DNA of 58,615 bases, the filler included, from Platydemus manokwari (taxonomy: Eukaryota), in the NCBI GenBank assembly GCA_037951405.1. It is 4 parts of 4 records of this genome, joined end to end, with 100 filler letters (N's around TTAATTAATTAA, not from the genome) between each part and the next. Parts side by side here need not be neighbours in the genome. Positions count along the whole stretch, not along the records: positions 48,495 to 58,615 come from JBBMOY011153771.1; 3 more parts are not named here. One strand, 5' to 3'. The translations under genes and the position numbers were made by a program. The number at the start of each line of letters is the position of its first letter. Within the stretch, counting starts at the first letter, position 1. Shown piece by piece: positions 3,040 to 58,615 of this stretch. Under the pieces are notes generated by a model. The model saw nothing but the letters and a program-made list of their open reading frames with translations, had not been told where the DNA came from and ran no database searches.

Positions 3040-9592
<6,553 letters not shown>

Positions 9593-12500
9593 GTAATTAT
9601 TTATTAAAATTAACATCAGATCATTCATCAACTTTCAAATAAAATCTTAACGTATATATTTAGATGTACATATTAATTTCATAACGTTAAACGCTTTTGA
9701 ATTTATTGATTCAATAAATTTAGTTTCCTATGTATTTATGTCGTGTAATTGTCTTGCATGTCAAAATTTAAAGTAAACAATATTCCAGAGGTAAAATATT
9801 TGTGATAATCACATCTGGAGTTGATTAGAAAGGATTATTCAATTAATAGCAATTCCCTACGCGCAATAGTTATTCTTTTTCACAAATAAAGTCAAGGAAA
9901 ATTATAGTGTCCCAGATATCAAAATTACCTTTTCGTTAAAAATCTCGGCGAGGAGAAATATTATTCTCGTTGATAATATTTATATTAAAAATGTTTTGAG
10001 TGTTGATCATTGTCCGTGGTTGTTAATTTCGGGGAGACATTCAAAATCCATATTTGTTTTTAGATCCAATTATAATATTCTTTAATCGTACTGTATTGTG
10101 AATAAAAAAAATCAATATTTAAAATATAACGAAAAAACGTTGAATCGTCAGTATATAAAAAATAGGAAATTGAAACAAATCCTTATATTCCCAGAGGAAA
10201 AAAATATTTGTGCCGACCCCATGTATTGTGTACATTATGAATACATATTGGAATTATATAATAATTAGTTAGAAAATATTTTTTACCTGGTCTATAAACA
10301 GAAAATCACTATATTACGAATAAAATATCAATGAAATTCTTAATTTTTTAAAATTTATTTAGTATTTTTTAAAATGTATTTTAGTTATTTATTTGTATGT
10401 TTATTATTGGATAGAAGTTTATTATTATTGCTGGTAATAATAATTAGCTTAGTTTAAATCATATATTCAAAAATTGCATTATTATTGTTTATATATATCT
10501 ACACATTCATTTCTCCATTTAAAATTAGTTTAGTTAGGATTGATTTAATATTTACAGAAGGATCTTGTTAATTAATATTATATAATTCTAACCGGTTTTG
10601 TTTATCGTTCTATTCAAGTTGTCATTGAAATTGAAATATAAGGAAAATTATTGCATCTCTTAATAATAATTGACTTAAATAATGATTTTCATTCCTTTTA
10701 TTCTCCATAAATTTGATGTAATAAAAAATTAGTTTTCCCATCAATTCTTTGATAGCATTTGGATTAATAAGTGATGCGCAATATTTTATTTTTGCTTGAT
10801 TAGATTTTTCTAAATATGTATGGAATTTGTCGATAAAATGACATTGCCCGTACTTGAATCATTTTAATAATTGATCTTCGGAATCTTACATGGAATGGGG
10901 ATTTTTCGTTAATTTTTCTTTAGAATTGCTATGCTGCAATTATTGCTAATATATTAAATTATTATAAATATTATATATGCATATAATAGGATCTTATTAT
11001 GACGTCTTTTCATTCCGTGGTATGCCTTATGTGTGTCTAATTTCATATTTAGTGAGCATAGTTTTTGATCATTGAGAATAATTAATGAAAAATCATTGGC
11101 TAAAATCACCAATATAATCATTGAGTTGAAAATTATATAAACATTATCTTCATATGATATTTAAGAATAATATACAATCCATTAAAGATATAATTTCTGA
11201 AATCCATTTATCAATTTATAGTAATTATATTTCATCAAAATTTCTTCCGTCAAGGAAATCTATCGGTAATATATTTTATCGGTTCTCAAAGAAAGTTTTT
11301 CTAATTTATAAAAATGGCATTAAAAAAATTTATTGATTGCTTTACCCATTGAAAGTCTAGACGTGATTAAAAAATTTATTTAAAATAATAAGTAAAAAGA
11401 TTTAAAGAAAAAATTTTCCATCTGTCTTTATATATGGTTATCGATATCAAATAATCGGGCTGTCACTAGTTGATATTGAAATGATTTATATGTTTGTACA
11501 AAATTTTCAAATAAACTTATTTTTTTCCCTATAATAATTTCCCTATAAACAATAGAGCATTTATTCATAACCAATCTTTCTATTCTTTTTTTCCAATAAT
11601 ATACATTAAGTGAAACGAAAAACAATAGAATCTAGAAACATATGAAAAATAATACAATAGTGTTGTTGTTTCCACAAAGATATTTTCACAATCTTTAACA
11701 TATTTATCTACTATATCTTCCACATTTTGTGAGAATTAAATATTTTTCCAGTTGACTATTATTGGAAAAGTGCCAACGAAGAACTTATCTAAGTTATCGT
11801 GCATTTATGGTTACAAGAAGCAAAATGACGTCACAATCAAAACGCCACAAAAGGATATGCATAGCAATGTAAAGTACTTAATATTTAAATGGTATCTTTT
11901 TCTATTTTAAAATACTGATAATATATCCAAGCGTGTTTCTCTTGAACATAAATGGCAATGATATATTTTATAGTTGTCTAGAAAAAATCTATTTCTTTTT
12001 GATCATTACATTTCTACATATGTTTACTCCAAACAACTAAAATTGGTTTTTAATTTTTCAATTCATACATTACTTTAAAATAAAAGAAACTAATATTTTT
12101 AATGGACAGATCCATATTTGTATTAAATATTTTCTTTAATTCTCACAAATATTCTTTACTCTACCTACACATCATCAAGGTGGATAGCTCTTATAGTAAT
12201 TATTAATTCAATTGTTACGTAAGCATTTTCACTTGATAATCAAATTGAGAATAAAAATACTTGAAAACTGTTGATATAACATTTGTAGTCTGTTGTGTGG
12301 AATGTCAAAATGGTGCCAAGATGATCAGCTCAATGTTGTGTTTTTGTTAATTTAGAACATAAATTCTTTGAAATTTTTTTAGTTCTAATTAATAAGTCAA
12401 ATAATAATTATAATATCAATATGAAAACAATTATATTTTGTAAAATACTTGCGACATTCTGTATTTTCCTTAAAACAGATTTTTATTAAGGTTGAAATAT

Positions 12501-12866: not shown

Positions 12867-12966
12867 NNNNNNNNNNNNNNNNNNNNNNNNNNNNNNNNNN
12901 NNNNNNNNNNTTAATTAATTAANNNNNNNNNNNNNNNNNNNNNNNNNNNNNNNNNNNNNNNNNNNN
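12867..12966. other. Artificial assembly linker (44N + TTAATTAATTAA + 44N)
   Basis: Exactly 100 nt. The 12-mer puts stop codons in all six frames, and identical structures occur at 31444 and 48395. Confidence 0.97.
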
Positions 12967-14184
12967 ACTGCGCTATCGAGGCCTGCTATTATCCATATTT
13001 CACCAATTTTATTATTTTTATTCCATACCCCCTCTTTACATTTTGCAAATAAATCGTACAAATTTCAACTATCTATCCTGGAAAATCTCTGTCTGTCAGG
13101 AAAAATCTAATAGTAGATTTAAACTCATCACAAAAATATAAATGAATAATCTGCTTTCATTCAAGGGAGAAAATATTTTTGATCAAGGCAATTATTTTGA
13201 CACAATCATTCTCCAAATGTTATTCAGAATTGTGATATCAATTGTAATTAAAGAAATTTCTCATGTAATATTTGAAAGAATCTTATAAATCTCAAAACAA
13301 TGATTGATAATAAGAGAAAAATTTATTTTTTTCAACATTTCGATTCCAGCTTGCAGAATGTTTAATTGAAAATTTGAAAATGAGTCAGTAATCAAACAGG
13401 TTTTCTATCATTTATCGATTGTGATACTGAACCAGTAAAAGATTAAAGACATGTAAACGCATCCAAAACATAATCTGATATCAAATGGTAATTCGCTTTC
13501 GATTTGTAAAATCTATTCCGTGATACCTTCAAAACACTAGCAAATTTATCGATAAAACTTTAATTTCAACAACGATATCGTTCTATTAATTGTATAAAAT
13601 GCGAACAATAAATATTCTTCAAATACATATGGTTTGAATTCCCCACTTTAATCAGATAAGTCTTTTTCAAAAATCCTGTCAATATTTGTAGCACATTGCA
13701 AATTATTCATCATTAACAAAACATAATCAATTTGTATCTGATTTCGTTTAATGTGTTTTGAAAATATAAAGGCTGTATCAATTGTGAAATGCTTGTAAAT
13801 AAACTCAATAGAATAATTCTGTTAAATATTGATCTTAATCAATATAAAAGTACCACAATGATTTCATTATAATTGTGCTATTTATTGATTTAATAAACAA
13901 TTGAAAAATAATCAATCATTAGTAATAATTATTATAAAGCAGTTCATTAAAATGGTGTGGGTTTTGTTTATCTCACTCTCTCAACCATCATTCTAAACTC
14001 ATATCAATAGCAACGTCCAATCAAAATGCAGTTCATCATCAGATCACCGCAAAACATTCTTTAGTTACACAAAATCACATCCAGGTAGCAGCAACAGTAA
14101 AACACCGAAAGTCCAGAATAAATAAATAAATTTATTCTCAAGAACATCCAGGAAATACAAAACAATTTTATAATAAAAGCGCGT

Positions 14185-28394: not shown

Positions 28395-28504
28395 ATGACA
28401 GTAATCGATTGACCGAAATGAAAATTTATTAATAACTTGTTATACGTTGATTTGTATTATTAATATTTATAATATTCATTAATATTTATGGCTATGGTAA
28501 AATT

Positions 28505-28697
28505 NNNNNNNNNNNNNNNNNNNNNNNNNNNNNNNNNNNNNNNNNNNNNNNNNNNNNNNNNNNNNNNNNNNNNNNNNNNNNNNNNNNNNNNNNNNNNNNN
28601 NNNNNNNNNNNNNNNNNNNNNNNNNNNNNNNNNNNNNNNNNNNNNNNNNNNNNNNNNNNNNNNNNNNNNNNNNNNNNNNNNNNNNNNNNNNNNNNNN
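28505..28697. other. Assembly gap (193 N)
   Basis: Run of N without the TTAATTAATTAA tag. Confidence 0.98.
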
Positions 28698-29336
28698 TTG
28701 TGAAAGATCCAAATTCTTTTTTCACAAAAACAAAATGTAATAAATTGTAAAATTTATTTTCTATTTTTTATTTTTTTTTTCAAATGATCTTACAAACAAA
28801 CTCATAAATATTCAAGTGCAAATTAATAAATCATAAGTTTTATGAGATTGTTAGTGAAAATGAAATGTCACAGAAAATCCTAATTACATGCCAATTTCCA
28901 TGACAACCAGCCATAATAGGAAAATTAATAAATCATTCAGATTGTTATCTAGCTGATCCAAATATTTCGATTTAAATGGCTCATAAAAGGTTCGTATGTA
29001 ATCAATAAAAATATTTTATTACACAATTTTATTACAGTTGATGCTGATTTTCATCTCTCATGGTTACCACAGCAATGTTTGAAAATTTCAAAAAAAATGG
29101 AAAAAAAGATCTAAAAAACTCTGAGATCCGATAATCAAATGCGCTACGTTTCACATTTAATCGATTCTATTAATTTTAGATGCCATCTGTGAACAGTAAT
29201 CACAACAATGATAATTAGCAATTAAATAGATCGCTTCAAAGTGTGACAGATTATTTGTTTTATTCATTATCATCATAATATTGTCAATATCATTTTACTA
29301 TAGATAAATGCAAATATAATATTATGTTATATAGTT

Positions 29337-31443: not shown

Positions 31444-31543
31444 NNNNNNNNNNNNNNNNNNNNNNNNNNNNNNNNNNNNNNNNNNNNTTAATTAATTAAN
31501 NNNNNNNNNNNNNNNNNNNNNNNNNNNNNNNNNNNNNNNNNNN
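31444..31543. other. Artificial assembly linker (44N + TTAATTAATTAA + 44N)
   Basis: Same 100-nt structure as at 12867. Confidence 0.97.
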
Positions 31544-32595
31544 TAGATTTTCAAACCAAATTTAATTTTCACTTAAACTGTATATATGTATATATTCAAG
31601 GTTAAAAAACAAAAAATAAAATAATAAACAATTTATGAATAGATTATGAGAAGTTCAGCAAACAATTTAATTGAAGTTCTAAATTACAAATCAACTTCTT
31701 AATTTCAGAATTTAATCAGTAAATTACTTTTGTAAATAATTAAGTGACACATATCAATTAGTTTATCAAAGAAACTGAAAATAATCTGTAATAGCAGGAA
31801 TATCGAATTAATTTTGCCATTTATTAACTTTATCGTGATTTCTTCTTAAAATCTTTTTTAAAACTCTTCAGGGATTAATGTTTACTCTTGAAGTCGTAAT
31901 CCATAGCTTCAAAATAAAAAAATGAAACAAGAATTTCTAACAATTAGAAGTGACTACTTACGAAATTCATATTCATTTTGTTATATTTTTATTTTAAAAA
32001 GTATTGATAATTAATTTTTGAAATTTATTACAAAAAATAAAAATAAATATAATATGGTTTTCGGTTAAAAAGCAAAATAGTTATTTAATGTATTATTTAC
32101 TTTTGTAATTCAATATAAGATTAGTTAAAGTAAAACGGAGGAATTTATCCAAATAATCATACAATAATTAATTAAAAACATCAATTGACAAAATTCAAAA
32201 TATAATGAAGCTGTAGATATGTATATAAAGCCATAAAATGTATTTAAAATATTTTTAATCATTATTATATTTTATTGAAATATTTAAAAATTTCAAATTA
32301 ACTGATTTGTACTTAATGAGGGAGTTGTTATCATGAAAATCTCCTACATTTATACTTTTACAAGATTTGTCGTTTAAAATTTGAAAGCGCTAATTTTAAA
32401 ATAAATACTATTTTAATGTATCTAACTTTGAAATCATTGGTTATTAAGGAAGACATTTTTTTGTATATAATACAATCATTATTTTTAATAGTCGGTGAAT
32501 CTAAAGTTATAAACTGTCTTTATTTTATGCCTATCACTAAATCTTTGTGTAGTTTAATTAGAATTATAATAAAACCACTGTAATTTGTTAATAGG

Positions 32596-35500
32596 ATGAA
32601 TGAAAATTTAGATGTTCATCTTTTGAAAAGGTATTGGGATACATCATTTTTAATTTCGGAAATAAGGAAATTATCGAAAGAAATTGATGATTGCTATATA
32701 CCGAGCATCCAAACACATCATTTAATTGATGATATTCAGAAATATAAATCAGCAAAAGCCATCGATCGCTATCAGGTAAGCCATTTTATAATACCGTATT
32801 TTGAAATTTAAATTTTTAATTTTTCTTTGTAATTCATATTTTAAGTTTTATTGAAATTTTATTTTTATTATGGATTTCTGATGTAAATATTTTTTATTAT
32901 TTATTAAGAATTTCAGTGAACCAGAATTGAAATATAATGACGTTGATTGCAATTTACAATTCGGTAAAGTTGCTGCGTATCAATGTTTTAGTGAAATTGT
33001 TGAATGGCAACGAAATGCTGTACGGATTTCGGAAAATGATTGTGGATTGTATGACGAAGTGATGGGTGAAAAACGTCAACGGAAAAAACAGAAAGTCAAG
33101 AAACAGAAACCGTCCGAAGATTCCCGATGGTTGGATCCATCAAATCATTATGAAGTGGAAGAAGAAATTAGAAGGCAACGAGAAAAATTTTACGAAGATA
33201 AAGGATGGATGGTGAAAGAAAAGCAGTCACATAAAAAATATCGAAAGATATGGAAAATGATGATCAAGAAAGAATTGGGAAAGGCAGCTAGACAGAGAAC
33301 TGCTTTACGAAAGGAAAAGAATATCATTTTGCGAAAGGCAGCTCGAGATTGCAGTAGATATTGTCGACAACGAGCGCTTGCGTCTCAAAAATGTGCCAAA
33401 GATGCCCTTAGTAATTATTTATTATTAATTATATTTTTAATTAATATAACGATCGTTTGATCAAGTATTGTAAATCTAAATATTTCAAATTAAAATTTGT
33501 CGGGGATTGAACAAAAAATAGAGGTTTCATACATATTTAAATTTAGCGGTATTGGATAGGACCCCCCCCTAATATAACACTGAACAGTTTGATCATCGGT
33601 ACCCACATCAATTTTGAATATTGACCAACCTGCCGGGTTTCAATTCGTCAGCTTGCCTTTCCATTGATCTTGTTCGGAAAAAATTTCTCTTCGAATTGTT
33701 GATCTCCACATATTTTTCTAGAAATACGACAGTCGCTTGAAATATTGAAGGATTTATTAAGTAGGAATTCACCATGGCAACACTGCTTTAGATAATGGAT
33801 AAAATAAAATTCTTAACATTTTAAACATTCTTTTATAAAGCACTTGTACAACTCTACCGCGATTGTTTATTGGCATAAGATAAATTTTTATTTATATTTC
33901 GAGTTATTTGGTTTTCAATTCAAGTTCGTACAATATTGATATTATTTAATGCTTGAAATCCTATATATTTCAAAAAAAATATTATTAATAATTTTGGATT
34001 TCTATTCTACAAAAGTGTTATGTCACCACATTATATAGAAATGAGCTTTGACATCATTTGTATAACATTTATCGGATCAACTGAAGAATCTCAACCCCAA
34101 AATCAATAAAAAATAAACCAAATATTAAATCAAGTCAAATATTAACCAAATGTATTTATTGAGGATATTGCAAAGCAATGTGTTGGCATAGATTTGCAAA
34201 TCGATTTACACCAAATCGTTTTCTGCACATAAATACTGATACGTATGAGTGTCAAAGTTCACATCGACAATCACGCATATTATTTATTTGAGCCCAGTGC
34301 TTGTTCCAGTGAGACTCAACATGTTGTTTATGAACTCCGTTTATTGGTTAACGAAGTTCACAGAATGATTAATTGTTCTGTGAATAAATCAAAGACCTTG
34401 TAAATTCCTGTATGATCTCCATTAGTCGGTGTGTATGATAGACCAGGATCGTACAACTGCTTGAATAATGGGTAAAAGTGTGTCCTCATTTCTTTTATCC
34501 ACAATTTCCGTATAACTCGTTACAGGTCTTATACTGCTATCAACTATACCCAAAGCCAACAATAGATTTATTGAATTTGTGCTAATGAAGAATCTCCCTC
34601 TAAACTTGATCCCATTTATCAATGAAATATATTTGCTTTGTGTTAAGTATTTTCTTATTTTAGAATTCTATTTATTATTGAAATATTAAAATTTTGATCG
34701 AGAGATTAACATTAAAATGTAAAAAATAATAATTATAAACAATAATAACCAAGCACATTTTCATAAAAAAATAGAGAATAAGAAGTGTAATAGTAGCGAA
34801 TTGATAACAAGAGAATATTCATTAGTTTCAAGTTAAAATTTGTTGGTTTTCATTTGATATTTCAAATGCAAAATGTACATTCTTGAAATCTTTAGAGATT
34901 AGCTTCAGATATGGGTTATAATAAGTCTTGATCAAGTCAATTTCCTAATCAAACAAAAATATTCTTAAATAAAATAATAATCCACAAAAATAGTACAACA
35001 TTAATAACATTTTCTAATTTTTGATTATATTCAATCTATTATCAAAATTACAAGCTATATTTATTATTGTCAAAGGTTTTGTTACTTGTGTTTATCCGTT
35101 TATTTTATAACCGACAGTGATCACTATGACCGTAGAAGAACATGAATCAATCTTACAAGTTCTTTGATCTAGTGGAAAAGTTGCGTAATAAATATTAATA
35201 ATATATCATTTCTTCTAGACAGAGGTAGACGTCTAGCAAGAGAAATATCAATGTGTTGGAGACAGCTTGAGAAAGAAGAGAAAACATCGCGTAAGAAGGC
35301 CGATAAAATCCTTACTGAACAGAAGCGTAAAAATCTGGAAATGTTGGATGCTAAACGACAACAAAGGAAATTGAATTATTTGATAACGCAAACAGAACTC
35401 TATACTCACTTTATGTCTCGAAAAATGAGTAAAGAAGATTCCGATGATGTTGATGAAAAGGCTTGGTCAATTCTGGGCAAAATTGAAGAGGATAATGATG

Positions 35501-44385: not shown

Positions 44386-45132
44386 ATGGATGAATTATGT
44401 AAAACCAAATCATACAGAAATATCTTAGATATTATTCAAAGTCTAAATGATAAGATAACTACTAATGATCAGATATCGGACAATGGTTCCAAACCATTTA
44501 TGACACCAATCAAAAATAAAATGTCAAAGGATTCATTAATACTGAAAAAACATACTCATTTTAGCAGCTTTGAAATCTCAATATTATCAAAATTGTTTTA
44601 CACTCTGAAAAGTGAAAATAAAAGTTCTCTATTATTAGATTCAGATTTCAAGCAATTTTTACAAATTACTCTCGACATCACCGACAGTTTGGCTTTAAAT
44701 GGGATTATTCATTCTGCTAAACAAAATTCTCTTAGGAAAGGGGTTAAACTTCATGAATTCATAATTACATTGAATATTCTATTGAGAGGAACTATTGAAG
44801 AGAAAAGTTATTTATCATTTCAAATATTAGACTATGATCATGATGGATATATTCGAAAGAATCAAGAAATTATTAATTTAATCAGAAATACTATAAATAA
44901 ATATATAGCAGCAACAAATGTGGAACTAGATCCCGGCGAACCGGAAAGAGATATAAATGAATATATTTGGAAAAAATTTGATAGCTCTTCTTCTCTGACG
45001 ATTGACTATCAATGTTTCAGAGAAGCTATTTTAAAAGAACCTTTACTATTAGAATCCATGAACAAATTTTTGCCATCAGATTTGCGATCGGCAGCTTTAC
45101 AAACATTGCTCTTTTCTAAATCAAAATTATAA
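44386..45132 (+). CDS. Calaxin/EFCAB1-like EF-hand protein (NCS-related), intronless, 248 aa
   Basis: THFSSFEISILSKLFY, FKQFLQITLDITD, EFIITLNILLRGTIEEK..SFQILDYDHDGYI, ELDPGEPERDINEYIWKKFD and FREAILKEPLLLES..FLP follow the calaxin pattern. AATAAA at 45314. Confidence 0.85.
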   Translation: MDELCKTKSYRNILDIIQSLNDKITTNDQISDNGSKPFMTPIKNKMSKDSLILKKHTHFSSFEISILSKLFYTLKSENKSSLLLDSDFKQFLQITLDITDSLALNGIIHSAKQNSLRKGVKLHEFIITLNILLRGTIEEKSYLSFQILDYDHDGYIRKNQEIINLIRNTINKYIAATNVELDPGEPERDINEYIWKKFDSSSSLTIDYQCFREAILKEPLLLESMNKFLPSDLRSAALQTLLFSKSKL

Positions 45133-48100
45133 AATCATTCTCGAATAATTTTAAGATGTGTATTTTGTGAAATACCTTCTCACCGAATTGATTCATTTTA
45201 AGATCTTATTTTGATATTTCTACTGGCACAAGATATTGTGTATCAACCAATGCATAAGCCAATATGGCTTAAGATTTAGTTTTCTTTAGTTTTGTAATGT
45301 AAATTTTTCATTAAATAAACGTTAGAAATTGCAATTGTCTTTAAACTATGTTTAGAAAATTAATTCATATGGACTATATAAATATTAAAATAATCAAGGT
45401 GTTCAATTTTAGTTCTACTTTTCAAAATATTATAGAAAATCTTATTTACAATCTGTCAATATAATTATAAATGTTTATCGTTTCGTTTTATATTTTTTTA
45501 TCTGATTAGTTTCTTGACCTTAATATTATTTAAATTAAAATTAATATTGAAAACATATTATAATTCAACCGCGAAACTAATTAAATTGCAGTCTCCTATT
45601 CATACAGTTTCCAACATACAACATGACTCTGAAATGTGAAATAAGTCAAAAATAATTAGAAATGGATGACTAATTATGACATTTTCAACAAAATGTTACC
45701 TATATTAGGATATTATATTACAGTACAATTTTGAACTTCTGGATAAGTCATAATAACATAATATCTATTGCACCAAATGTAATTATTGGTAAAAATTAAT
45801 TATTTTATTAAAAATTTTTAAAATCAAAAGAACAGATAATCAGATTAAATGTATAAATTTGTGGTTCTGATCTATGGTTTAAATTTTTGATCCTTCAATA
45901 TGAGAATTTCATAAATTAATCTTCAAAAAGAAGTATTTTTATTATTTTACTTTTAGTATTTTACTTTATAATAAATCATAAACGATTTTTAATAAATTAA
46001 GTTGATTAAGTTTTTTATTTCTAATGTTAATTTTTTTTATTTGAATTTTCAATTGCAATCATTGATCGTATGAATCAAGTGTTCATAAAATCATGTCGTT
46101 TAATAACGTTTTTGAAATTACTATAATTTGATATTTGCGTTTATATCACAATCAAATATAGAAATTGTCGATATTATGTAACTTTGATCCTGGATGAAAC
46201 TTAATGACCTAATGGCTTCATTTTCGTGTATGAAGTTAAAAGAAGTAATTCCATTTAATTTTTAAATTTGTATTGTAGGATCAAATTCAGTACAATTGTA
46301 AATATAAGAGTGCACTGGATTAGGAATTCATTTTACACACATTTAAATGTAACGATTATTTTATGAGTGAACTTAACTAAGGAAAACCACTTTAAGAAAA
46401 AAATTGTCGAGTTAAATTCTCTAGAATCTGTTTATATAATGAAATAAAAATATGTTAATATTCTTATGATAATAATGTTTAATATATTGCAATATAAAAC
46501 ACAATAGATAATAGATAACTAGAATTATAATACACATTTATTTATCTAAATGGCAACGATAATACAGTAGATTTTAATTAACATTTTTGCAGACACCTAT
46601 TAGTAAACAGATTTTATTATCATCTGTGTCGCCTAAAATCTCTGTATGGGGAAATGATGTTAATTAGATAGTCAAGTTAATTAAAAATTAATCAAAATAC
46701 CGTTTACACGACGTTAAGTGAAAGTGAAATCGATAACAAATATATTTTCTTGAATTAATGTTTTCAGAATAACTGAAATAATTCTTAAAATAATTGATAA
46801 ATAGATAACTTCAAGTAAAATTGAAATAATCTTCAAGCTAATATTACAACAAGAGGAGTTAAGTAGTTAAGCTAATTTGTGGACATTATAATGGTCCAAG
46901 CTTTGGTGTTTAATATTTTAGTTTCTTTGCTTTGGCCATTTTTTGTGACTTGACCTTATGCGAAGTTCTTTGTTTGTGTTTTATTCATCTTGGTTATGTC
47001 TTAAATCTCCATGGCAACGTGAATTAATAATCCTAAAAAATCGAAAATTTCTTTTTAGATTATATATATCTGAAAGTCACAAGTTGGTTCCACAGTTGGG
47101 CACAGTTGTTGCGTTCGGGCCTAGTAGTTTATTATAGTAGTCTATTATACTTTCGAATGATTTTGGATATATTGACACTATTGTCTTTATCAGTCTCAGT
47201 GAGTATCTGGTTATAGCCTGAGATTCAATTTTCCCCTGTTAAAGTTAATTTTTCACCTCTCACTTCAGTATCGTGTGATAATGATATATAGTGGCAGCAG
47301 TGGTTCTATAACTTATTATCAGTATTAATATCAAGCCTAACTCTAATACCCCGTATTAAAAAACAATGAATATTAGTTATTAGCAATTTTAGTTTATAGT
47401 AATCGATCAAATTAAACATTTATTATAAGAAAATTATCGATACAACACCAATATAAAAAGTTACAAAATGATTTTAAAATACATTACACACCAAATCCCC
47501 TGATGGGAACCTTATTAATTTCTTGTGACAAGTGGCTGTTAATAGACCCGTACTTTTGGAGTAAACCAGTTATCTCAGAAATTTGAGACAGAGCTCGACA
47601 ATATGAGTTCAACGATGGCATTAGTTGTTTATAATTATCGCTTACTTAGTCTTATAGACTTGTTGGCAAATGATCGGAAAATCGAAAAACGTATACAAAT
47701 CAACGCGATCTTCTCTAAGTAACAATTAGATATTAGAGTCAAAGCTTGTGGTTTATTACAATAGGGCACTTTCAATTGATCTTTTTCCTATTTATATTAT
47801 TGATCGTCGTGGGCGTTAATCTCTTTGATTAATCATTTCTCCAACGAATTTATTTAATTCGCTTGATATTTCTATTGTGGCATTGTTATTATTAATTCTG
47901 GAATTATTTTCATTATTTGGAAAAATATTGTTATTTTTAGATGTATTGAATATATTGTCAAATTTATATGTTGTTTTAATTCTGGTTTAATTATTATTTT
48001 GGAAAGATTTATTATTATCCAATTAATTTAAACTGTTCATTTTTCATTGTCATTGGGATAAAACATAAAATTATAAAATTGCAAGGTATTGTTATATTGA

Positions 48101-48394
48101 TTAATGTTATTTTTTTGAAACCCCAACATATATTCTGTACTTATTTATCCTCGTAACTAATAATAGTAATGCTAACCTCAAGAAACTCTGGGAAACCATT
48201 TTGCAAGACCCAATACACGGAGACTCTTACGTAAACATAAACAACAAACCAGTCATAAACAATATTACCAAAACATTATATTATCAAAGTTACTTGGGTA
48301 ACAAACTAACATCATATCTGTTAAAGATTGATGGGTGTTAATATAATAGAGATAAAATCAGATTACAAATGCACAATTTGTAAAAAGATATTGA

Positions 48395-48494
48395 NNNNNN
48401 NNNNNNNNNNNNNNNNNNNNNNNNNNNNNNNNNNNNNNTTAATTAATTAANNNNNNNNNNNNNNNNNNNNNNNNNNNNNNNNNNNNNNNNNNNN
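48395..48494. other. Artificial assembly linker (44N + TTAATTAATTAA + 44N)
   Basis: Same 100-nt structure as at 12867. Confidence 0.97.
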
Positions 48495-51446
48495 TACTAC
48501 TGTCAAATATTTATCAGTAATATCAATACTTATAAAATTATATAAATCAATAAATGAATTAGATTTTTTTTAATTTATTCCAAATGTTATTTTAAAATTA
48601 TTATGGATTTACTACTCACAAAAAATAGTTCAGTTTTATAAAATCATCAAAAACAAAATAACTCAGCACAACCAGTGCGATGTAAAACAAACACACTAGG
48701 CAATCATATGATAAGCTATACAACTCTTTATTTGTACCATACTATCCAATACGACAAGATTCCAGATTATAATAAATTTTACAATATTGCCCAACACATC
48801 ATTACACAACAGTTCATGTTGATGGGATATCCGTGTTAGGTTGTGAGATATCATAATGAATTATATAAATCGATTAAGTAAAATCATACCACATCTAATA
48901 TCTGGACAAGACTCAGATTCATATAAAGCAACACAGTTGAAGTGTAACTCTTTACCGGTCTCACCGATGGATCGTAACCACGCCTTCTCATCAAATCATC
49001 ATATAATCGTCTGGCATCTTTGGTTCCTGTCAGAACAGAAAAAGATTCATGTCAAACAAAATTCCCAACAACGCAATAAATCCAAAAAAACCTCCACTGA
49101 ACGCTATGAAACCGAACAGTAAAATTCCGCAAATCGCGATTTGCATTTTCTCCAATTTCTGACGACAGAAAATTGTTTTTATCTGCTGGCGGTAAAAAAA
49201 AAGTTTAAAAAAAATTTCCTTATTCAAAAATAACAGAAAGAATTATTCTACAAACCCGTCCTGAACAGAAATATTTCTCAGCAAATTCTGTTTTCTTCTT
49301 AAAGTGTCTGTGTGTCTGTAAATCTATTAGTGATTGAAAATAACTCTTTCCACTATTGATTTTCGGTATTTGTGGAATGATTTCTAATATTAATTTCAGA
49401 TTTCGGTTTTTTTTCCATGGGATTATTTTACCTTGGAAAATTATTAATCCATTGTAAAAAGTTGAACGTGTTTTTCAACTGAAATTTCTCCTTCTATAAA
49501 TCGTAAATAAATAAATAAATAAATAATTTTAATGTGAGGAATAATTCTGTTGATAAATGGATTTTCACAAAAAATTGTCAGTTTTTATTGATAAAATACA
49601 TTTAATTTAAAAAATAATAATTTTAAAATATATTTAACAAATTACTTATAAATAATAAGTAAATCAAATTAGTAAAAATAAATGTACATTATTCTTAAAT
49701 CATATCTTATCTTAAATTATATTTCTAATAAACATTAATGGCTTATAAAAATATATTCGTAACCATCGCGTGATAAGCGATCCAAAAATATTCTAATTTT
49801 ATATTTGTTAAAAAATCGATATTTGAAAATAACAATGTCATATTCAAATTCTACTGGTTTAACGCTGCAAATTTCAAGAAAAGAATAAAATATAATCTTA
49901 TTAAAGAGAATGAAATATTCTAAAATATCAATTAAATAAATATAAAATATAATACCGATATTAATCAGTAGATAAAATTCATTAAAAATTTCTCAAGTTG
50001 TTATTATCATTGTATAATTAACCCATCCCAACAAAGACTAATAAAAAGCTATTCAATAAACAATTATTAGTAATAATAATAATAATTATTTCCAAGGTTT
50101 AAATCTTAAGATTGCTAAAATGCACATGCACACGTATATATAAATATATATATAATTAAAATTGAAGTCTTTACAGTTACATGAAATATTTAAGGTAACG
50201 AAAATACTATCAATCGTTTAAGTCAATCTTAAATATTAATTCCCTAAAGACGCTAGTAGCACGTACATCATTAGGAAGCCAGTGCATGTTGAAAAAAATC
50301 AATAACAAAACACGACTCGTCTCTGTCGCATTTCAGATATTTATAAATGAAGCTCGGTCCTTAGTTTGCTATCAAAAGCGGCATTAATCATCTACTAAAG
50401 ATTATATTGGGAAGAAATAAAAATCAATAACCAGAGAATCAAATGATTACGTTACCTACATCTCAATATATACACCCATTCCTCCCAATATATTACATCT
50501 GCAGAGTATATCCACAACAAGTTTAATACCAACTTACTTAGCTAGATGTTTATCATGATAAAATTCATATGATATCAAAAACTAAAGTCTTTGTCACATC
50601 AATAGTACCTGCACTAGCTTGACTGCTTATAGTAAAGCTTAGGAAACCTAGTGTATTCACAAGAAAAATTTAATTTTAAGGAAATACTGACATATCTTCC
50701 GCAGTGATTGCAGGAAAAGAAAACCAATAACTGTTCTAATCACAAACATTCAATGCGGAACAGGTGTTTAATACTGCACTAATTTTATTAAAACTCCAAA
50801 ACCGAAGAACTTTTTACAGTAACTTTTATTGTAATAAATTTTTGCTATGACTTCACTTCAAATGTTTGATAGGGTTCTCAACTCAAATAAAAATTGTTAA
50901 GAAATTAACTATTGAAACAACTTGCCTTATAATTGTTATTCCTGTAAGAATTGAGATACCACAAGAACTACCGAATTCGGCATTGAATTAACTTATCTTC
51001 GACGGAAATACGAGATTCACAATACATCTAATTATATCAGATGCTATAATCCTCTGTATACATTAAGTGTAACACGATCATTAATTCATGTTCAGCGGTG
51101 GTTAATTAACTAAGCTAATACATAAAAAATTCTCAACCTACATTATTAACATAAGACACACCAAGCACCGACGTATCGTAATATACGACAAAATGAAGAT
51201 GGCAATATTCTTGGATTACCACAGGTACATTTGTTATCTTTTATAATAAATATAGAATCGAATGGATTCGATTAATGTCAAACATAGATCACGAAGTGAT
51301 ACCAGTGGTTAAAAGCAAAATAATTTAAATTATCTGAGGACTTTAAATTAATAAAGCTAATAACTGTACATGTTATATTTAAGTAGGACATGCTCGAAAG
51401 TCCACCATTTATTTATGTTAACCATATAATGAAAGTTTGAATCGAT

Positions 51447-52013
51447 TGAAGAATCCCCTCCCTAACATCAGTCTATTGAGGAATCTCCACCCCAAAATGT
51501 CAAATATTAATCAAATTTATTTATTGAGGATATTGCAAAGCAATTTGTTGCCATAGATTTGCAAACCACTTACACCAAATCGGTCTCTCCACATAAATTT
51601 TTATATGTGTGAATGTATAAATTCTCTTCGACACTCACACAAATTCTTTATTTGAGTTTTGTGCTTGTTCCAGTAAGACTCATCCTGTTGTGTATGAACT
51701 CCATTTACAAAATTAACGTAGTTCACAGAATGATTAACTGTTCTCTGAGTAAACTCGAGTCCTTGCAATTTTCAAATTTATCAGGGCAAACATGGGTGCA
51801 TGCGATTTATCTCTGAACAGAAAACATTAGAGAAAAATTGGCTTCCAGATGGTTGAACATTCCAGAAAAAACACTGGTGAATTATTACAACTTTTTTCGT
51901 GATGTGTGTACGAATTATTTCAGATCCAATCCCATTTCAATTGAAGATTGCCTTCCTCAGCATAAATCGAATGAAGAATCTCCCTCTGGACTTGTTCGAG
52001 GGAAGATTCTTCA
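51447..52013. mobile_element. Second Merlin/ISXO2-like relic, internally rearranged
   Basis: Minus strand ~51520-51770 encodes the C-terminus (TVNHSVNYVNFVNGVHTQQDESYWNKHK..FMWRDRFG). Plus strand ~51795-51945 encodes an N-terminal-type piece (ASRWLNIPEKTLVNYYNFFRDVCTNYFRSNPISI). Shares nucleotide similarity with 34086-34408. Confidence 0.8.
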
Positions 52014-53289
52014 GTTTATCCGAAAGTTCTTATGCCTTGTTAAAGTTATGAATAATTTTGTATTTTGAGGGCGTTGTGTCACAATCAATAAACCCCTCTT
52101 TTACGACTACGAGCATCCAATATTATTTTTCATCCAATATTATTATTCAATACAGGTGACGCCGATTTAAAACCTTTGTGTGAGAACAAAGAACAATGTA
52201 CAGAAAAAACATACATCATAATGATTGATGTGATAGTCGAAACTATTATAATCCTATAACCCATATGTTTTCTATTACAGTAATAAAGGTGCTATTACAA
52301 TCTATATTTACTTTATCACACAAATGAAAACTTAAGAAAAATAAATTTTCTTTATCCTTATAAAAATTTTTGTATGATATGTAAAAATTAGTTGGCTTTT
52401 TATTTATTTTCTTTTTTTATATTTCGTGATGCGTCGTATGCTCATATCTCACATTATTTACAGATGGCAGGCATTCAATGTTCATTTTACTTACTGATAA
52501 ACCAATTGAGGGCGTGAACTTTCTAAAATTCAACTCATTAAACATAACACAAAGTAGAGAATTTTATTCTGCTTTTATTATATGGCTGAATTCTTATGTA
52601 GCTTGATCGAGTGTTCTTATCAATACTCTTAGTGTTGAATAACAATGAACAATAAATAACTGATTCTAATATAAAGTGTATTAATCAATACACAACTACA
52701 AAGTCTTTACCTAAACCTGGCTTTCAACTGGCAGTTATCCTCTTCACATTGATTTTTATACTCGCGATCTATGTGTATTTTTGGCTCATGTTGTATTATA
52801 TTTTGAATTGTTGTTTGTTTTTCTGTGTTCTTATTGGGTTTTTAAGTTTTTACATGAGTGGGATTGGTCAACCCCTATATGTGTGTTTTGTGTAGTTATA
52901 CCATTTTTTCCAATTGTAATTCACCATCTAACGTCTCTGTAATTGGTTGATTGCTAAGCCTGTATGGCATTGTAGGCACGCAAATGTTCAAAGTGCCAAA
53001 ACAAGGGTTCCAAGGTGTAATTTAATTTTTATTTTTGCAGGATTTCATCTCACTCAACATTATGGTCGTTTACCATTATTACTTCAATCAGATATATTTC
53101 TAATATTATTGTGTTTTTCATCAAGTTGTCTAATATATTTATTAGCTTTTATTAGCTCCGTAGAACCGGACGATATCTTTCATATTTTATTATTTATTGA
53201 AAAGAATTTTTTAATAAAATTGATTTTACCTTGACTACATGGAGAATTTTTTCAAAATTGTTTATGGCACGAAACCCATTTTCTGCGTG

Positions 53290-53821
53290 ACAAAAACAGA
53301 TGAAATCTTTACGGTAACCATGGAAATAACCCTTAAATGGTTAATAGATACAGATTAAATAAAAGCTCGTGCTAATAGCCAATCAGATTCCCTTTAATAT
53401 CAACCTGTATTCGATTGGCACATACCAATAAATGCCAACAAATATCGATATTTGCCAATGGCACGAAATATGCAAGTAAAATCGTTAACATATCCATGTA
53501 TAAACAAATTCAACAAATGATAAACGAATCTCCGAGACATCAACCTAATGCACACAATAAATCTATAAAAGAGGTTGGATTCCCATGATCATCTGCCAGT
53601 ATTTTTGGTCGGTAACTTTCATTCTGATCTTTGAGTTTGGTGCGATTTTTCCTATAGTCAGTCATTTTTATTGTCTTCTATTCTGTATTTGACTTTCGGG
53701 TTCTGATCCCGTCTTGAGTATTAATTCACTAATATGTTGTAATACGATTTTAACTGAACCTATTAACAAGCCAAATTTGTGATTCTTGTAGTTTATATTA
53801 TAGATTTCAGATTTTATTGTT
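53290..53821 (+). repeat. LTR-like / promoter-bearing repeat, copy A
   Basis: Collinear with copy B: GAAATAACCCT, ATACAGAT, AGCCAATCAGATTC, TATAAAAGAGGTTG (53564), CTGCCAGTATT..TTGGTC.GTAACTT, TTTGACTTT. Boundaries are approximate. Confidence 0.75.
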
Positions 53822-54311
53822 ATTTAATACATAATATTTTTAATTTATTAATTTTTAAAAATAAATTTTTTATTCTAATAATAATATTTAATTTTAATTT
53901 TATATTAGAAAAATCATTTAATTTATTTTAAAATGTTCTTAAACAGTAAATTTATAGTTTTAATTTTCTAATTACATTTTATTGTTTTAATTTTAATTAA
54001 AAATTAATTAAAAAAATTCGATTTAAATTTAATTTTAAAAAACTACTCTTAAAAAATTAATAAAATTCTTAAAGTTTTTAACAAAAGACGGAACCAAGCT
54101 ATTATATTGTGCCGCCCCTCATATCCAGTCATTTGAGTCCCATAATCATGATAAGGAATCGATTGCTGATTTCAAATATATACCAAAATATTAAAATACT
54201 CAACTATTTTTTATTAAAAGTTTTAATTTTAAAACCAGCTTTTTAAAAGAAAAATATTTTTTTAAATATAATTATTTGTTTTAATAAGATTAAATAAACC
54301 ATCAATTAATA

Positions 54312-55709
54312 ATGGATGAAATAATTCAATGTGGTATTTGTTACGAGGACATCAGCATGGAAATGAATAATTTCATCGAATTTCAATGTCATCACGGTTT
54401 TTGTAGAGAATGCGTTGATACTTTATTGAATGTAATCGTCATTGATAATAATACCGATTATCATACTTCGACCTGTCCTTTAGATAGGACACCAATAACC
54501 CGAATTTACGATGGAAATCAAACGATACCCTGTCTACTTTATAAATTAGATTGCTTCACAAGAAAATACCCAGTGGCTCTACTGAAATTCGAAAATTATT
54601 CGTATGAAGTCATAAAAAGTCTTGTTTATGTTTTCTATCGTTTTCAATGCTTGGCGAATATAGATGTAAAAACATGTGAACACTGTAAAACGTTGAAAGA
54701 TAGAGAAATTAAAGACCTTAGAATAACAGAGCAGTGGTTTGAAGTTCCGGAAATGTTTCGTAACGACAAGCACATAAAAGCAATCTTAAAAATTATTTCC
54801 AAATCCGAAATGTACCTCAACAGAGAAATGCCACTGAAATATGCCAGAATTTTAAACATCAATTTAAACGAAGTGTTCTGTCAATTTTCAGAAAATTTAT
54901 CCCATTATATTGATTTTATTTCTAATGATTCTTTCAGCACATCATTAAACAAGTCGATGTTAGACGATTATTTGGAAGACAATTGTAAATATTTGAAGGG
55001 GTTAACGATTGCATATGTTAGTCAAAATCAAGCCATTTATCAATTATTAAAACCTGAATCCAAAGAAATCGATATTGATCAATGCCTTATATGTTATTCA
55101 CCTATTAATAGTGAAGCGATATTTGGTAAATTCATTGGGTGTCAACACAAAATATGCATTAGCTGCATCGATTCATACGTGATCATGCATGGCAGTTGTC
55201 CTTATGACGAAGGTGATATTTCAGAATTAACAATATCCCATAAATACGAATCAATCTCTTCATATTTTTATGATAACTTTAGGGAAACAATAACTAATTT
55301 ATTTAACCGCTTTATAGGAGAGTATATCATAATTATAAACAATTTATTAAATAAGGAGAACAATAGTTCAAGGCTGGAATTAGAAGTGGAAATAGTTAAT
55401 CTTACTTATCTTCACTTCTTTTCCTTCAATCGAAAAATTAAAATGTTGCAAATGGGTTTTAATGATTTGAAAGAAGATAAAAACCTGAATTACTTGATCA
55501 AAACGACAACTGGTATTGGTTTATGCTTGAGCACTTTTTGCGAAAATTTTAATCCGTCTGTAAACGAAGCCAAAAATTACACGTATGAAAATCAAAAGGA
55601 CGCCGTGTTAAGTCGAGAAGAAGGAGTAGATGAAGATTATTTTACAAAAGTAGATGATGCAATGAAAACTTTGGAAAACACAATGGCGAGTAAATTTGGC
55701 ACTCTGTAG
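54312..55709 (+). CDS. Intronless protein with two RING-HC (C3HC3D variant) fingers, putative E3 ubiquitin ligase, 465 aa
   Basis: RING1 CGIC..CHHGFCREC..CPLD (aa 7-58); RING2 CLIC..CQHKICISC..CPYD (from aa 258). AATAAA at 55730. Confidence 0.85.
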   Translation: MDEIIQCGICYEDISMEMNNFIEFQCHHGFCRECVDTLLNVIVIDNNTDYHTSTCPLDRTPITRIYDGNQTIPCLLYKLDCFTRKYPVALLKFENYSYEVIKSLVYVFYRFQCLANIDVKTCEHCKTLKDREIKDLRITEQWFEVPEMFRNDKHIKAILKIISKSEMYLNREMPLKYARILNINLNEVFCQFSENLSHYIDFISNDSFSTSLNKSMLDDYLEDNCKYLKGLTIAYVSQNQAIYQLLKPESKEIDIDQCLICYSPINSEAIFGKFIGCQHKICISCIDSYVIMHGSCPYDEGDISELTISHKYESISSYFYDNFRETITNLFNRFIGEYIIIINNLLNKENNSSRLELEVEIVNLTYLHFFSFNRKIKMLQMGFNDLKEDKNLNYLIKTTTGIGLCLSTFCENFNPSVNEAKNYTYENQKDAVLSREEGVDEDYFTKVDDAMKTLENTMASKFGTL

Positions 55710-56124
55710 ATATTATAAGATCTTTACCGAATAAATTTCAATTGTTTCTATTTTTATTTTCTTATCATTTTATCTTTTTTAATGGGAAATTATTTGAGAA
55801 TTCTATGTTTTTAGTATCGATTGACTTTTAGAAAATGAAACCCAATGATTGTATTTACAGACATGGCATTTGCAAATATAAATATAGCCGTATTTCATCT
55901 TTTAAATCTTTATGTATAATCATCAAAAAAGTTGATATATTCAAGAAAGTTGACACAAGACATTAAGAAATATATGCCATAGTTCCGGTATGCAACCCCC
56001 TGATAAAAAAAAGCATGCCTTTGAGAGAAATTACCAAATGAGTTCGAATAAGCCAATAATTTAATGCTGTATTTGAAGAATCTTTTTGATATTTAACATG
56101 TTTATTATTTGTGTTGGGTAAATC

Positions 56125-56627
56125 ACAAATAAATCAAAAGGCATTACAGGAACCAATGAAATAACCCTAAACGAGTCGGCACATACAGATCCGATAATCC
56201 CATGCGTCGTCAGCTAATCAGATTCGTTCTAATATTAATCCATATTTAGAAGTTAGAATCGATAGGCATATACCTACAAATGGTTGTCAAATTTCAAATA
56301 TCTGCCACCAGCATAAGAGATAATTAGAAGCAGACCGATCTACGAACGAATTCAGTAAATTGAAAACGAAGATCCGTGACATAAAGCAGACACGCTCAAT
56401 CGGCTTATAAAAGAGGTTGAGCTCCATGAATAACTGCCAGTATTGTTTGGTCAGTAACTTGTGTGTTGATCTTAACTTTGGGGGATTTCCAGCAACAAGT
56501 CTATTCAGTTGTTTCTATTCTCCTTTGACTTTTGGATACTGTTCTCACCTTGTGTGATATCATTGATTGTGAAAGAAATTTAACCGTAGTTATTGTGCAG
56601 TTAATATAATTTTCAGGTTTAATTGTT
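56125..56627 (+). repeat. LTR-like / promoter-bearing repeat, copy B
   Basis: Same orientation and motif order as copy A: GAAATAACCCT, ATACAGAT, AGCTAATCAGATTC, TATAAAAGAGGTTG (56406), CTGCCAGTATT..TTGGTC.GTAACTT. Boundaries are approximate. Confidence 0.75.
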
Positions 56628-57490
56628 GATTATCACCTCCATAGTTCCAAGGATTCCGAAATCATTGTATGCTCAAACTAAAAGACCGGAAAGACATTTT
56701 GTGGTATAGTGTGACTTCATGGATACAATTTCGATGAGGACCTTTCATAATAGGATTGAGAAATTACGATGAGAACTGCATTATCGATAATGCAATACTA
56801 TATTTGATTCTGCGTTTTGTATCTCTGTTCATTGCTAGCCTTTTTTTAAGTAAAGCAGATGAGATACAATTTGTTACACAGGAGCACTTAGACTGTTCTG
56901 CATAAACGAGAATTAAAAGTGATTTTTAATACTCGACCTACCAGTCTCAGATTTTATCTCTGAAGAGTTTGGTAAAGATCTCTCCACAATATCTACACTT
57001 TTAGGAGGGCCATTATTCCTTACCAAGCGGCTGTCACTTGATTTGTTTTGCAAATTTTATTTTATATGCCTAGCCATTGACAGTGAAAATTTTTATACGA
57101 TTTCGGGAGACATAAAACAATCTTTTTCTCATCCATATTTACATCAAAAATGTTTATAATTCTAAATTTTTCCAAAATCTTCCAATCCATTTAATCCGTG
57201 CTTTGTTATTTCCTAAATCAATCAATATGCTTAATAGTTATGTAAAATATGGATAGCTCTAGAGTATATTATCATTTGATTATTGAAAACTAGCTGTTAT
57301 TAGCTGTATCATTTGTGAAAATCATTTCATTCGATTGAAACCTATTGAATATATACAGCATAAATTATCAACTTTATACAAATCGCTTAGAGATGAATTT
57401 CTTCGAATTCGTCCAATAAAAATAACAAAAATAGTTAGAAGCACACAATCATAGATATCTACATTGGTCATGCAGCCAACAGAACTTTGA

Positions 57491-57595
57491 ATTATATATT
57501 ACTATTATATATTATCATATTATTATATATTATCATTATCATTATATATTATCATTATCATTATATATTATCATTATCATTATATTTTATCATTA
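57491..57595. repeat. Minisatellite, 19-bp unit ATTATATATTATCATTATC (three exact copies plus degenerate flanking copies)
   Basis: Exact units start at 57522, 57541 and 57560. Confidence 0.85.
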
Positions 57596-58615
57596 ATTTT
57601 TCACTCTTTAAAATAGGTATTTAACTTTATATATAAATAATGAAACCCCCTTCATTTTGATTTTTAATTTATAAAAATTTGCTAAATATATCAAAATTTG
57701 GAAAATATTCGTATATCAGGATTTTATCATTCTGAATATTGCTGGGTCTCAGACCCCACCACTGAGATTAAGATGAAAAATCACAAGACAATTTTAAAAA
57801 TTACCTAAAAATAGAACAAACGATGAAAATCGAATTTAAAAAGTATAAAAAATAGAACAACAAAATAATAATATCTAAAAATAGAAATAAAAAAGGTGAA
57901 AATAGTTAACAAAAAAGACAAAAAAGAAAAAATAGCACGATAAAAGGCAATATTGATAAGAACGAGAAAATATCAAGATACACAAAAAAATATAATACAA
58001 ATTAAAGACAGGACATTTTAATGTCCACTGAACCTACACTGATTGTAGAATGATATTTTCGATTCCTCATTTACGTTTGAGTTATTCATAATTGCTATCT
58101 TCCTAATCGTGTTTTAAATTATAAATAACAATCAATAATTGAGAAGAAACAAAGTTGACAGAAAAATTATTTCCCCCCCTAAATAGTTACTTAAAATTTT
58201 TATCTACATGTAATCTTTAAATTTAATTTTCACATTTTATTATATTTCTACTTTATCCACACCTTTAATTAATTTTAATTGGTTGAACTCAGCCCAATCG
58301 TTTTATTAAATAAAATTTAAAAATCTATCAGAGATTGGTTCAATATGTTCAATCATCAGTAAGCTATTCACTAAAAAGAGCTTTTAATTTTACTATTGGA
58401 GTTAGATTAGATAAATAAACCCGTTAATTATCACAAAATTTTCCAAACTTTCCCTATCAGTCTTATATCAAATAATTTAACAAATCATTTTAAAATATGC
58501 CTTAACAATACGTCTTAGTTCAAAATAACCTTGAAAATAACTTAAAATACAATCTGGGTTTCGCATATTTTCCAAAAGAATAATAACAATACTTTTAAAT
58601 ACATTAATGTTATGG

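Follow-up and report, generated by a model that had tools for sequence, protein, structure and literature searches.

An intronless double-RING gene of Platydemus manokwari is flanked by a diverged pair of abundant repeats with promoter-like anatomy

The window considered here is a stretch of 58,615 nucleotides (nt) from the flatworm Platydemus manokwari (GenBank assembly GCA_037951405.1), in which parts of four records are joined by filler letters; positions are counted along the whole window, and those from 48,495 onward come from record JBBMOY011153771.1. Within this last part, two collinear homologs on the same strand, repeat copies A and B, bracket an uninterrupted open reading frame (ORF) of 465 amino acids (aa) that carries two RING domains (positions 53260-56634). 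The reading that we favour, with a probability of about 0.4, is that A and B are diverged members of an abundant repeat, likely solo terminal repeats, that were inserted separately around an older RING gene, and that A now serves this gene as promoter and leader exon. The locus is a real feature and belongs with a known kind of co-option, which likely describes it better than an intact provirus would.

Homology between A and B is evident in several alignments. Their local alignment (53213-53839 against 56047-56646) has 404 identical columns out of 564 and a score of 273. Shuffled sequence (100 trials) never scored above 90, and 70 real segments of the window, which is AT-rich (22-38% GC per 2 kb), never above 181. 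Global alignment of the core gives 354/519 identical positions (68%), a Kimura two-parameter (K2P) distance of 0.42 and a score reached by none of 300 dinucleotide shuffles, and nhmmer recovers the pair with an E value of 3.3e-36, the aligned core in A spanning 53302-53828. These results bear out an earlier interpretation made from the sequence alone (the sequence-only reading), which had proposed two same-strand, collinear repeats about 2.84 kb apart and had suggested aligning them. It had also placed in each copy an identical TATA block followed after about 30 nt by GCCAGT; the 14-nt block TATAAAAGAGGTTG indeed occurs at 53564 in A and at 56406 in B (a spacing of 2842), with GCCAGT 30-31 nt past it in both. 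The homology stops about 20 nt past an acceptor-like TTTCAG (53810 and 56616).

The abundance of the repeat is apparent from a depth map, in which contigs of the one public run listed as containing the stretch, which may be its source, were aligned to 48600-58615 at 80% likeness. Summed contig depth, which is not copy number and in which a contig matching both copies may count at one, so that the A/B ratio is soft, was 924-1,439 over A and 5,064-6,190 over B, compared with about 15 in unique DNA and 16-28 over the RING ORF. Thus, A and B stand at 60-400 times the single-copy level and the ORF near that level, which argues for an abundant repeat family rather than a local duplication of a promoter. 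The sequence-only reading had itself named high copy number as one half of the outcome adverse to its proposal, and this half is what the depths reveal. In a comparison drawn from 40 of 557 difference rows, the majority letter at sites of A was B's letter in six of the seven alignable rows (ten rows listed), and at sites of B it was A's letter in nine of the 11 rows listed. In addition, some contigs join A-like to B-like parts, and at the two sites of CCAAT loss in B most mapped contigs still have the box. The agreement of the majority letters with the other copy suggests that A and B are aged members of one family, the bulk of which lies between them. Both are likely transposon-derived, and the repeat resembles a solo long terminal repeat (LTR) or a Penelope-type pseudo-LTR (pLTR), which are its candidate classes.

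The modules of the repeat run in the order CCAAT, CCAAT, TATA and initiator, with GTAACT 14-15 nt past the initiator A, then T-rich DNA and TTTCAG (Table 1). The donor and acceptor motifs lie at aligned places in the two copies, and the splicing predicted from them would remove an intron of 199 nt in A and 163 nt in B; downstream of the initiator, neither copy contains a polyadenylation signal (AATAAA or ATTAAA). A CCAAT-like box had been claimed for each copy; this holds for A, but in B the corresponding sites read CTAAT (56214) and CCACC (56305). If A drives the gene, NF-Y would bind its two CCAAT boxes, transcription would start near 53598, splicing would join the 14-nt leader exon to 53811 or to an acceptor further on, and the message would be terminated by the AATAAA of the gene itself, found at 55730 as had been reported; B would be a promoter-damaged bystander. 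That A has likely been kept as a promoter is argued from two points: of the two copies only A still has both CCAAT boxes, and it lies 480 bp upstream of the gene in the sense orientation. Summed over all the models considered, use of A as a promoter is given slightly better than even odds. A different reading of the leader, as part of a spliced-leader RNA, was dropped: there is no Rfam match, and a flatworm spliced leader is expected to end in AUG, which this leader does not.

The RING ORF is, as previously described, intronless and the only substantial one between the copies. A full HMMER scan yielded at least 39 related clusters at E <=0.001, the best full-length one being 35% identical, and a word-seeded protein search for relatives found no match. 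In an alignment of the query and 33 of the 39 clusters (six short fragments were left out), pairwise identity has a median of 19% and a maximum of 57%. All 29 clusters that were looked up are unnamed ENA or Logan records, and 28 of them are singletons. By this sequence divergence the family, unnamed and of at least 39 clusters, is old, far older than the split between A and B. Among 23 apparently full-length relatives, 17 lie on contigs that exceed the ORF by less than 700 nt, which fits mRNA and, equally, repeat-bounded genomic contigs. The five top-scoring relatives (P0001-P0005) lie on contigs of 2,994-3,697 bp, near the 3.4-kb span from A to B, and the others mostly on shorter ones. In simulations of an unselected copy, the frame survived 10% divergence in 0.35% of runs and 15-20% divergence in 0/2000. 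Given this simulated decay, the intact frame implies selection on the gene, provided that it has resided here throughout the divergence of the repeats.

A third abundant block, C, which the sequence-only reading had missed, lies upstream of A and points away from it. On the minus strand it has TATAAAA at 52760, an initiator-like CCAGT with its A at 52729 (31 nt on) and a donor-like GT at 52710, and contig depth across 52608-53275 is 8,166-10,910 (about 15 in unique DNA), rising to about 22,000 at single sites. A 12-mer at its initiator is identical to one in B (0.004 expected by chance), and the window contains CTGCCAGT at three sites only, one each in A, B and C. Beyond this core, the score of C against A is equalled by 53/300 shuffles, indicating no homology, and that of C against B by 4/300, a marginal result; nhmmer finds no match of C to either. 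The best reading of C is that of a repeat family either separate or distantly related, placed head-to-head with A.

A provirus, a retrocopy and a Penelope unit were each sought by their defining features. The copies are not near-identical terminal repeats, and their K2P distance is compatible only with a very old pair. Aligned TGTTTAT motifs stand at 53260 and 56099 and CA at 53833 and 56634; such dinucleotides are common, and these ends are approximate. Among TG/CA pairs lying no more than 50 bp from the candidate ends, none had a target-site duplication (TSD) of 4-6 bp, which age could erase, whether for the whole unit or for either solo copy. There is no TGG for a primer-binding site (PBS) in 53781-54100 and no polypurine tract (PPT) adjoining B, the only run of at least nine purines lying at 56005, about 90 nt before it. 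The sequence-only reading, too, could define no PBS, PPT or TSD. No gag or pol match to Pfam was seen in 24 short frames scanned across 47546-57498, mostly picked from 78 listed short frames; between the copies there is only the RING ORF, with spacer bins at depths of 27-123. Rfam gave no match at E <=1, and no hammerhead core motif was found; the hammerhead ribozyme is absent in Naiad and Chlamys. Folding of the repeat is nothing unusual (z -0.36 and +0.35). As to a TSD of 8-10 bp around a whole Penelope-like unit, one 9-mer pair was seen, at 52436 and 56667; it lies about 200 bp outside C, and 9-mer matches occur in 63% of control window pairs. The geometry of a Penelope pLTR unit, with a second direct and an inverted copy of the same repeat, would fit, but C is not homologous over its length. 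With defining features sought and not found, the locus cannot be filed as an LTR-bounded retrocopy or as a Penelope unit. Furthermore, the first option of the sequence-only reading, an old LTR-bounded unit whose gag-pol was replaced by a captured E3-ligase retrogene, is disfavoured in its literal form, not only by the lack of TSD, PBS and PPT but because the spacers are near single-copy, 370 nt of unique DNA without a poly(A) trace follow the AATAAA, and the family is older than the A/B split. Its third option, two independent solo LTRs, fares best as regards independent copies of a dispersed family, with LTR identity as a candidate assignment.

Separate insertion is favoured because the DNA between A and B is genomic-like, with a spacer of 15% GC, its own polyadenylation signal and no A-tail, and because the protein family is older than the repeat pair. 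However, several observations weigh against this reading. Under uniform insertion, with an assumed genome of 0.5-1 Gb and 25,000 genes, 1,500 copies would give only 0.004-0.014 genes genome-wide that have same-sense copies on both flanks at no more than 500 bp, and 5,000-10,000 copies would give 0.04-0.6. A geometry so improbable by chance favours a single event, and we have therefore kept as the main, though less likely, alternative that A, the RING gene and B arrived as one unit, whose cis-acting ends would let a retroelement move the enclosed DNA in trans (pLTR-like or by LTR capture), or that recombination between two copies of the family moved the segment; the gene would then have been kept by selection and read from A. 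The family-majority letters, lying between A and B, would fit two coeval ends, and the short contigs of the relatives would suit such a unit as well as they suit mRNA. In addition, the layout of inverted C, direct A, gene and direct B matches that of a nonribosomal peptide synthetase (NRPS) gene in Adineta (PMC3846280), and a predicted start and 5'-untranslated-region (5'-UTR) intron within the repeat resemble Penelope/Chlamys pLTRs (PMC8557442). Against these stand the lack of homology between C and A and the marginal score of C with B, the lack of any TSD above chance or of a hammerhead, and the lack of close copies of the ORF at 80% identity among the run contigs. Furthermore, A lies in long unbranched contigs, whereas for most of B no such contig is listed, which hints weakly at different ages.

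The other points against our favoured reading concern whether A is used at all. B keeps its TATA, initiator, donor and acceptor without a gene, so the motifs in A need no host selection. The promoter blocks had been thought visibly better conserved than the rest, but this lies within chance: the best 56-column window has 47 identities against a mean of 66% (permutation P 0.088), and a 14-nt identical run between the copies has a probability of 0.38. The TATA-to-A spacing of 33-34 nt is at the long end of the usual range, and two upstream ATGs in the 5' spacer (53933 and 54148) would have to be spliced out or bypassed. Finally, near single-copy DNA of the spacer holds a rival promoter-like stretch at 54100-54130, with TATA-like, GC-box and CCAGT motifs (TATTATATT at about 54100, then a GC box, and CCAGT at about 54125). 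An alternative that we hold to be unlikely treats all three repeats (A, B and C) as neutral insertions into a patch rich in repeats, with the RING gene transcribed from a promoter of its own at about 54100-54130. This possibility gains from motif retention in A that is statistically no different from the rest and from the gene-less core motifs of B, but A has kept both CCAAT boxes despite its divergence (a rough chance of about 0.1, estimated at 20% per site), it lies a short way upstream in the sense orientation, and the ATG at 54148 would follow directly on the proximal start. We hold it to be very improbable that A and B are promoter/5'-UTR modules, either of a tandem array with a lost second gene or of a very large host gene family. 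The end of homology just past the acceptor-like site is what a module of promoter, leader exon and intron would give, but the repeat is abundant and the ORF near single-copy, no ORF or RING remnant was found downstream of B within the window, and the window holds no second RING remnant. The same depths and missing remnant speak against the second option of the sequence-only reading, a locally duplicated promoter of a gene array.

Table 1. Features of the bracketed locus, in window coordinates
Feature	Position	Strand	Basis
Repeat copy A	53260..53833, ends approximate	+	Alignments, nhmmer, contig depth 924-1,439
Two intact CCAAT boxes in A	53379 and 53455 (53379..53459)	+	Sequence; box kept by most contigs mapped at the matching places in B
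TATA box at 53564 with the predicted start at an initiator-like GCCAGT, whose A (53598) lies 34 nt from the first T	53564..53600	+	Sequence
Predicted 14-nt leader exon	53598-53611	+	Motif; site aligned in B
Predicted 199-nt intron	GTAACT at 53612 to TTTCAG ending 53810	+	Motifs kept at aligned places in B
5' spacer, 15% GC	53834..54311	+	Depth 123 in covering bin
Uninterrupted 465-aa ORF: RING, helical linker, RING, helical bundle	54312..55709	+	ORF call, Pfam, model, depth 16-28
RING 1, C3HC3D (C7 C10 C26 H28 C31 C34 C55 D58)	54330..54485	+	Intact in 27/28 covering members
RING 2, C3HC3D (C258 C261 C277 H279 C282 C285 C296 D299)	55083..55208	+	Intact in 32/34, accepting D, H or C at ligand 8
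AATAAA	55730..55735	+	21 nt past stop codon, then U-rich tract
Repeat copy B	56099..56634, ends approximate	+	Alignments, nhmmer, contig depth 5,064-6,190
Motifs in B	Changed CCAAT 56214, 56305; TATA 56406; initiator A 56439; donor-like 56454; acceptor-like 56616	+	
Block C, abundant repeat pointing away from A	52608..53080, ends approximate	-	Depth, motifs

The protein itself has been compared more widely. On its domain content, we predict a single-chain E3 ubiquitin ligase that bears a pair of C3HC3D RINGs. RING 1 and RING 2 are homologous to each other (hhalign 97.6%), and the helical parts are not detectably so; the linker of about 200 aa is predicted to be helix, and the C-terminus is modelled as helical. 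No MATH, IBR or transposon domain was matched in any of the 34 members. An alignment-based structural model reached a pLDDT (predicted local distance difference test) of 73 and a pTM (predicted template modelling score) of 0.73; a single-sequence fold was discarded at pLDDT 31. With this model, Foldseek matched RING domains only, none at E <0.001, and VIA matched generic helical bundles (best Z 10.1, root-mean-square deviation 3.4, 118 aligned), so that neither search gave a whole-protein match. Hits in the PDB include TRAF6 and Roquin-1. A quick tree of 29 rows of at least 400 aa has long branches and places the protein only loosely. The Atlas neighbours of relative P0001 are viral and unrecorded RING clusters (at most 0.90, with at most 147/256 shared features), a lead only, and neither relatives nor a motif match were found in viral contigs. 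A single metagenome motif match (L001) is due to chance: it lies inside a prokaryotic sugar-biosynthesis operon, and blastn detects no similarity between it and the window. In the literature, searched by titles and abstract openings, neither this repeat nor the RING family was found described; a list of 393 RING transcripts, 17 without a human homologue, may include family members (PMC8807557).

The surroundings of the locus contain further repeats and genes. Two decayed Merlin/IS1595-like transposase copies (51499-51950 and 34134-34406; PF12762, E 0.006) are 79-94% alike in pieces, and the pieces at 51.5-52 kb apparently lie on both strands, as if rearranged; together with block C, the Merlin fragments suggest that the patch collects repeats. 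A short frame just past B (56916-57056, minus strand), which has no Pfam match, resembles what we take to be the C-terminus of a hAT/ZNF862-like transposase. Block C points to a gene 3.5 kb away that resembles a nicotinic acetylcholine receptor; an exon at 48887-49051 (minus strand) matches the ligand-gated ion channel binding domain (PF02931, E 2e-4), the gene is missing from the list of ORFs of 100 aa, and a possible signal-peptide stretch lies near 49030-49150. Other genes in the window are NatB/MDM20, INO80 and, at 44386-45132 (plus strand), an intronless gene for a 248-aa EF-hand protein, presumably calaxin/EFCAB1-like, with one relative found (57% identical) and no repeat bracket seen. 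In a protein search with an INO80 exon, a bird protein at 55% identity ranked first, and 24 of the 25 rows after it were named flatworm proteins at 57-67%, in accord with a flatworm host; base composition suggests a free-living triclad. N runs lie at 12867-12968, 28481-28723, 31444-31545 and 48395-48496, three of them with a short TTAATTAA palindrome mid-run, and these account for the top repeat families of the window.

Should A drive the gene, the locus would give a concrete example, in a flatworm, of a promoter and first exon derived from a transposon. Should the RING paralogs be framed by the repeat as well, gene mobilisation in the manner of Penelope would reach beyond rotifers, and the expansion of ubiquitin ligases in flatworms would have a candidate mechanism. 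The strongest form of this idea, that the repeat is a portable cassette of promoter, leader exon and intron which acts in trans to frame, mobilise and activate host genes and which drove the expansion of tandem-C3HC3D RING ligases, we consider improbable. Of separate interest, and a more durable novelty, is an undescribed family with two conserved C3HC3D RINGs and neither MATH nor IBR.

Solo LTRs have been co-opted as promoter and first exon elsewhere, as in rodent MaLR/MT. The present locus shares with such cases an abundant repeat that precedes a host ORF and carries a TATA box, an initiator and a splice donor; it differs in the acceptor-like site near the 3' end of the repeat, and transcription and LTR class are here a prediction and a candidate, respectively. 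In flatworm, TATA promoters make up about 5% (PMC10558129). The NRPS gene of Adineta vaga framed by Penelope pLTRs likewise has a host gene between direct repeats, an inverted promoter-like block 5' of it, TATA and initiator motifs, and no internal element sequence. However, in Adineta the inverted copy belongs to the same pLTR, with repeats of about 200 bp and an 8-bp TSD, whereas here C cannot be aligned to A, the repeats are about 550 bp long and 68% identical, and there is no TSD or ribozyme (PMC3846280). LTR-mediated retrocopies (Tan et al. 2016; PMC5131818) also place an intronless coding sequence between same-sense terminal-repeat-like copies, but our locus has no element remnant, TSD, PBS or PPT, unique DNA continues past the polyadenylation signal, and the gene family is older than the repeat pair.

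For the protein and its possible cargo status, other systems are pertinent. The Burro giant LTR retrotransposons of planarians carry ubiquitin- and apoptosis-related domains, but their cargo is part of, or adjacent to, a polyprotein of about 5,000 aa within elements of more than 30 kb, and nothing like it is seen here (PMC6431247). Planarians also show an expansion of TRAF/MATH proteins (PMC6109357, PMC7586133); the present family differs from TRAF in having no C-terminal MATH in its 34 members and a C-terminus modelled as helical, and from RBR (RING-between-RING) ligases in having no IBR between its RINGs. With the C3HC3D RING ligases Roquin and TRAF6 (PMC3166285) it shares an Asp at zinc ligand 8 and a Cys-Pro-x-Asp end, here in both RINGs, but it sets itself apart from them by joining two RINGs, about 200 aa apart, through helices.

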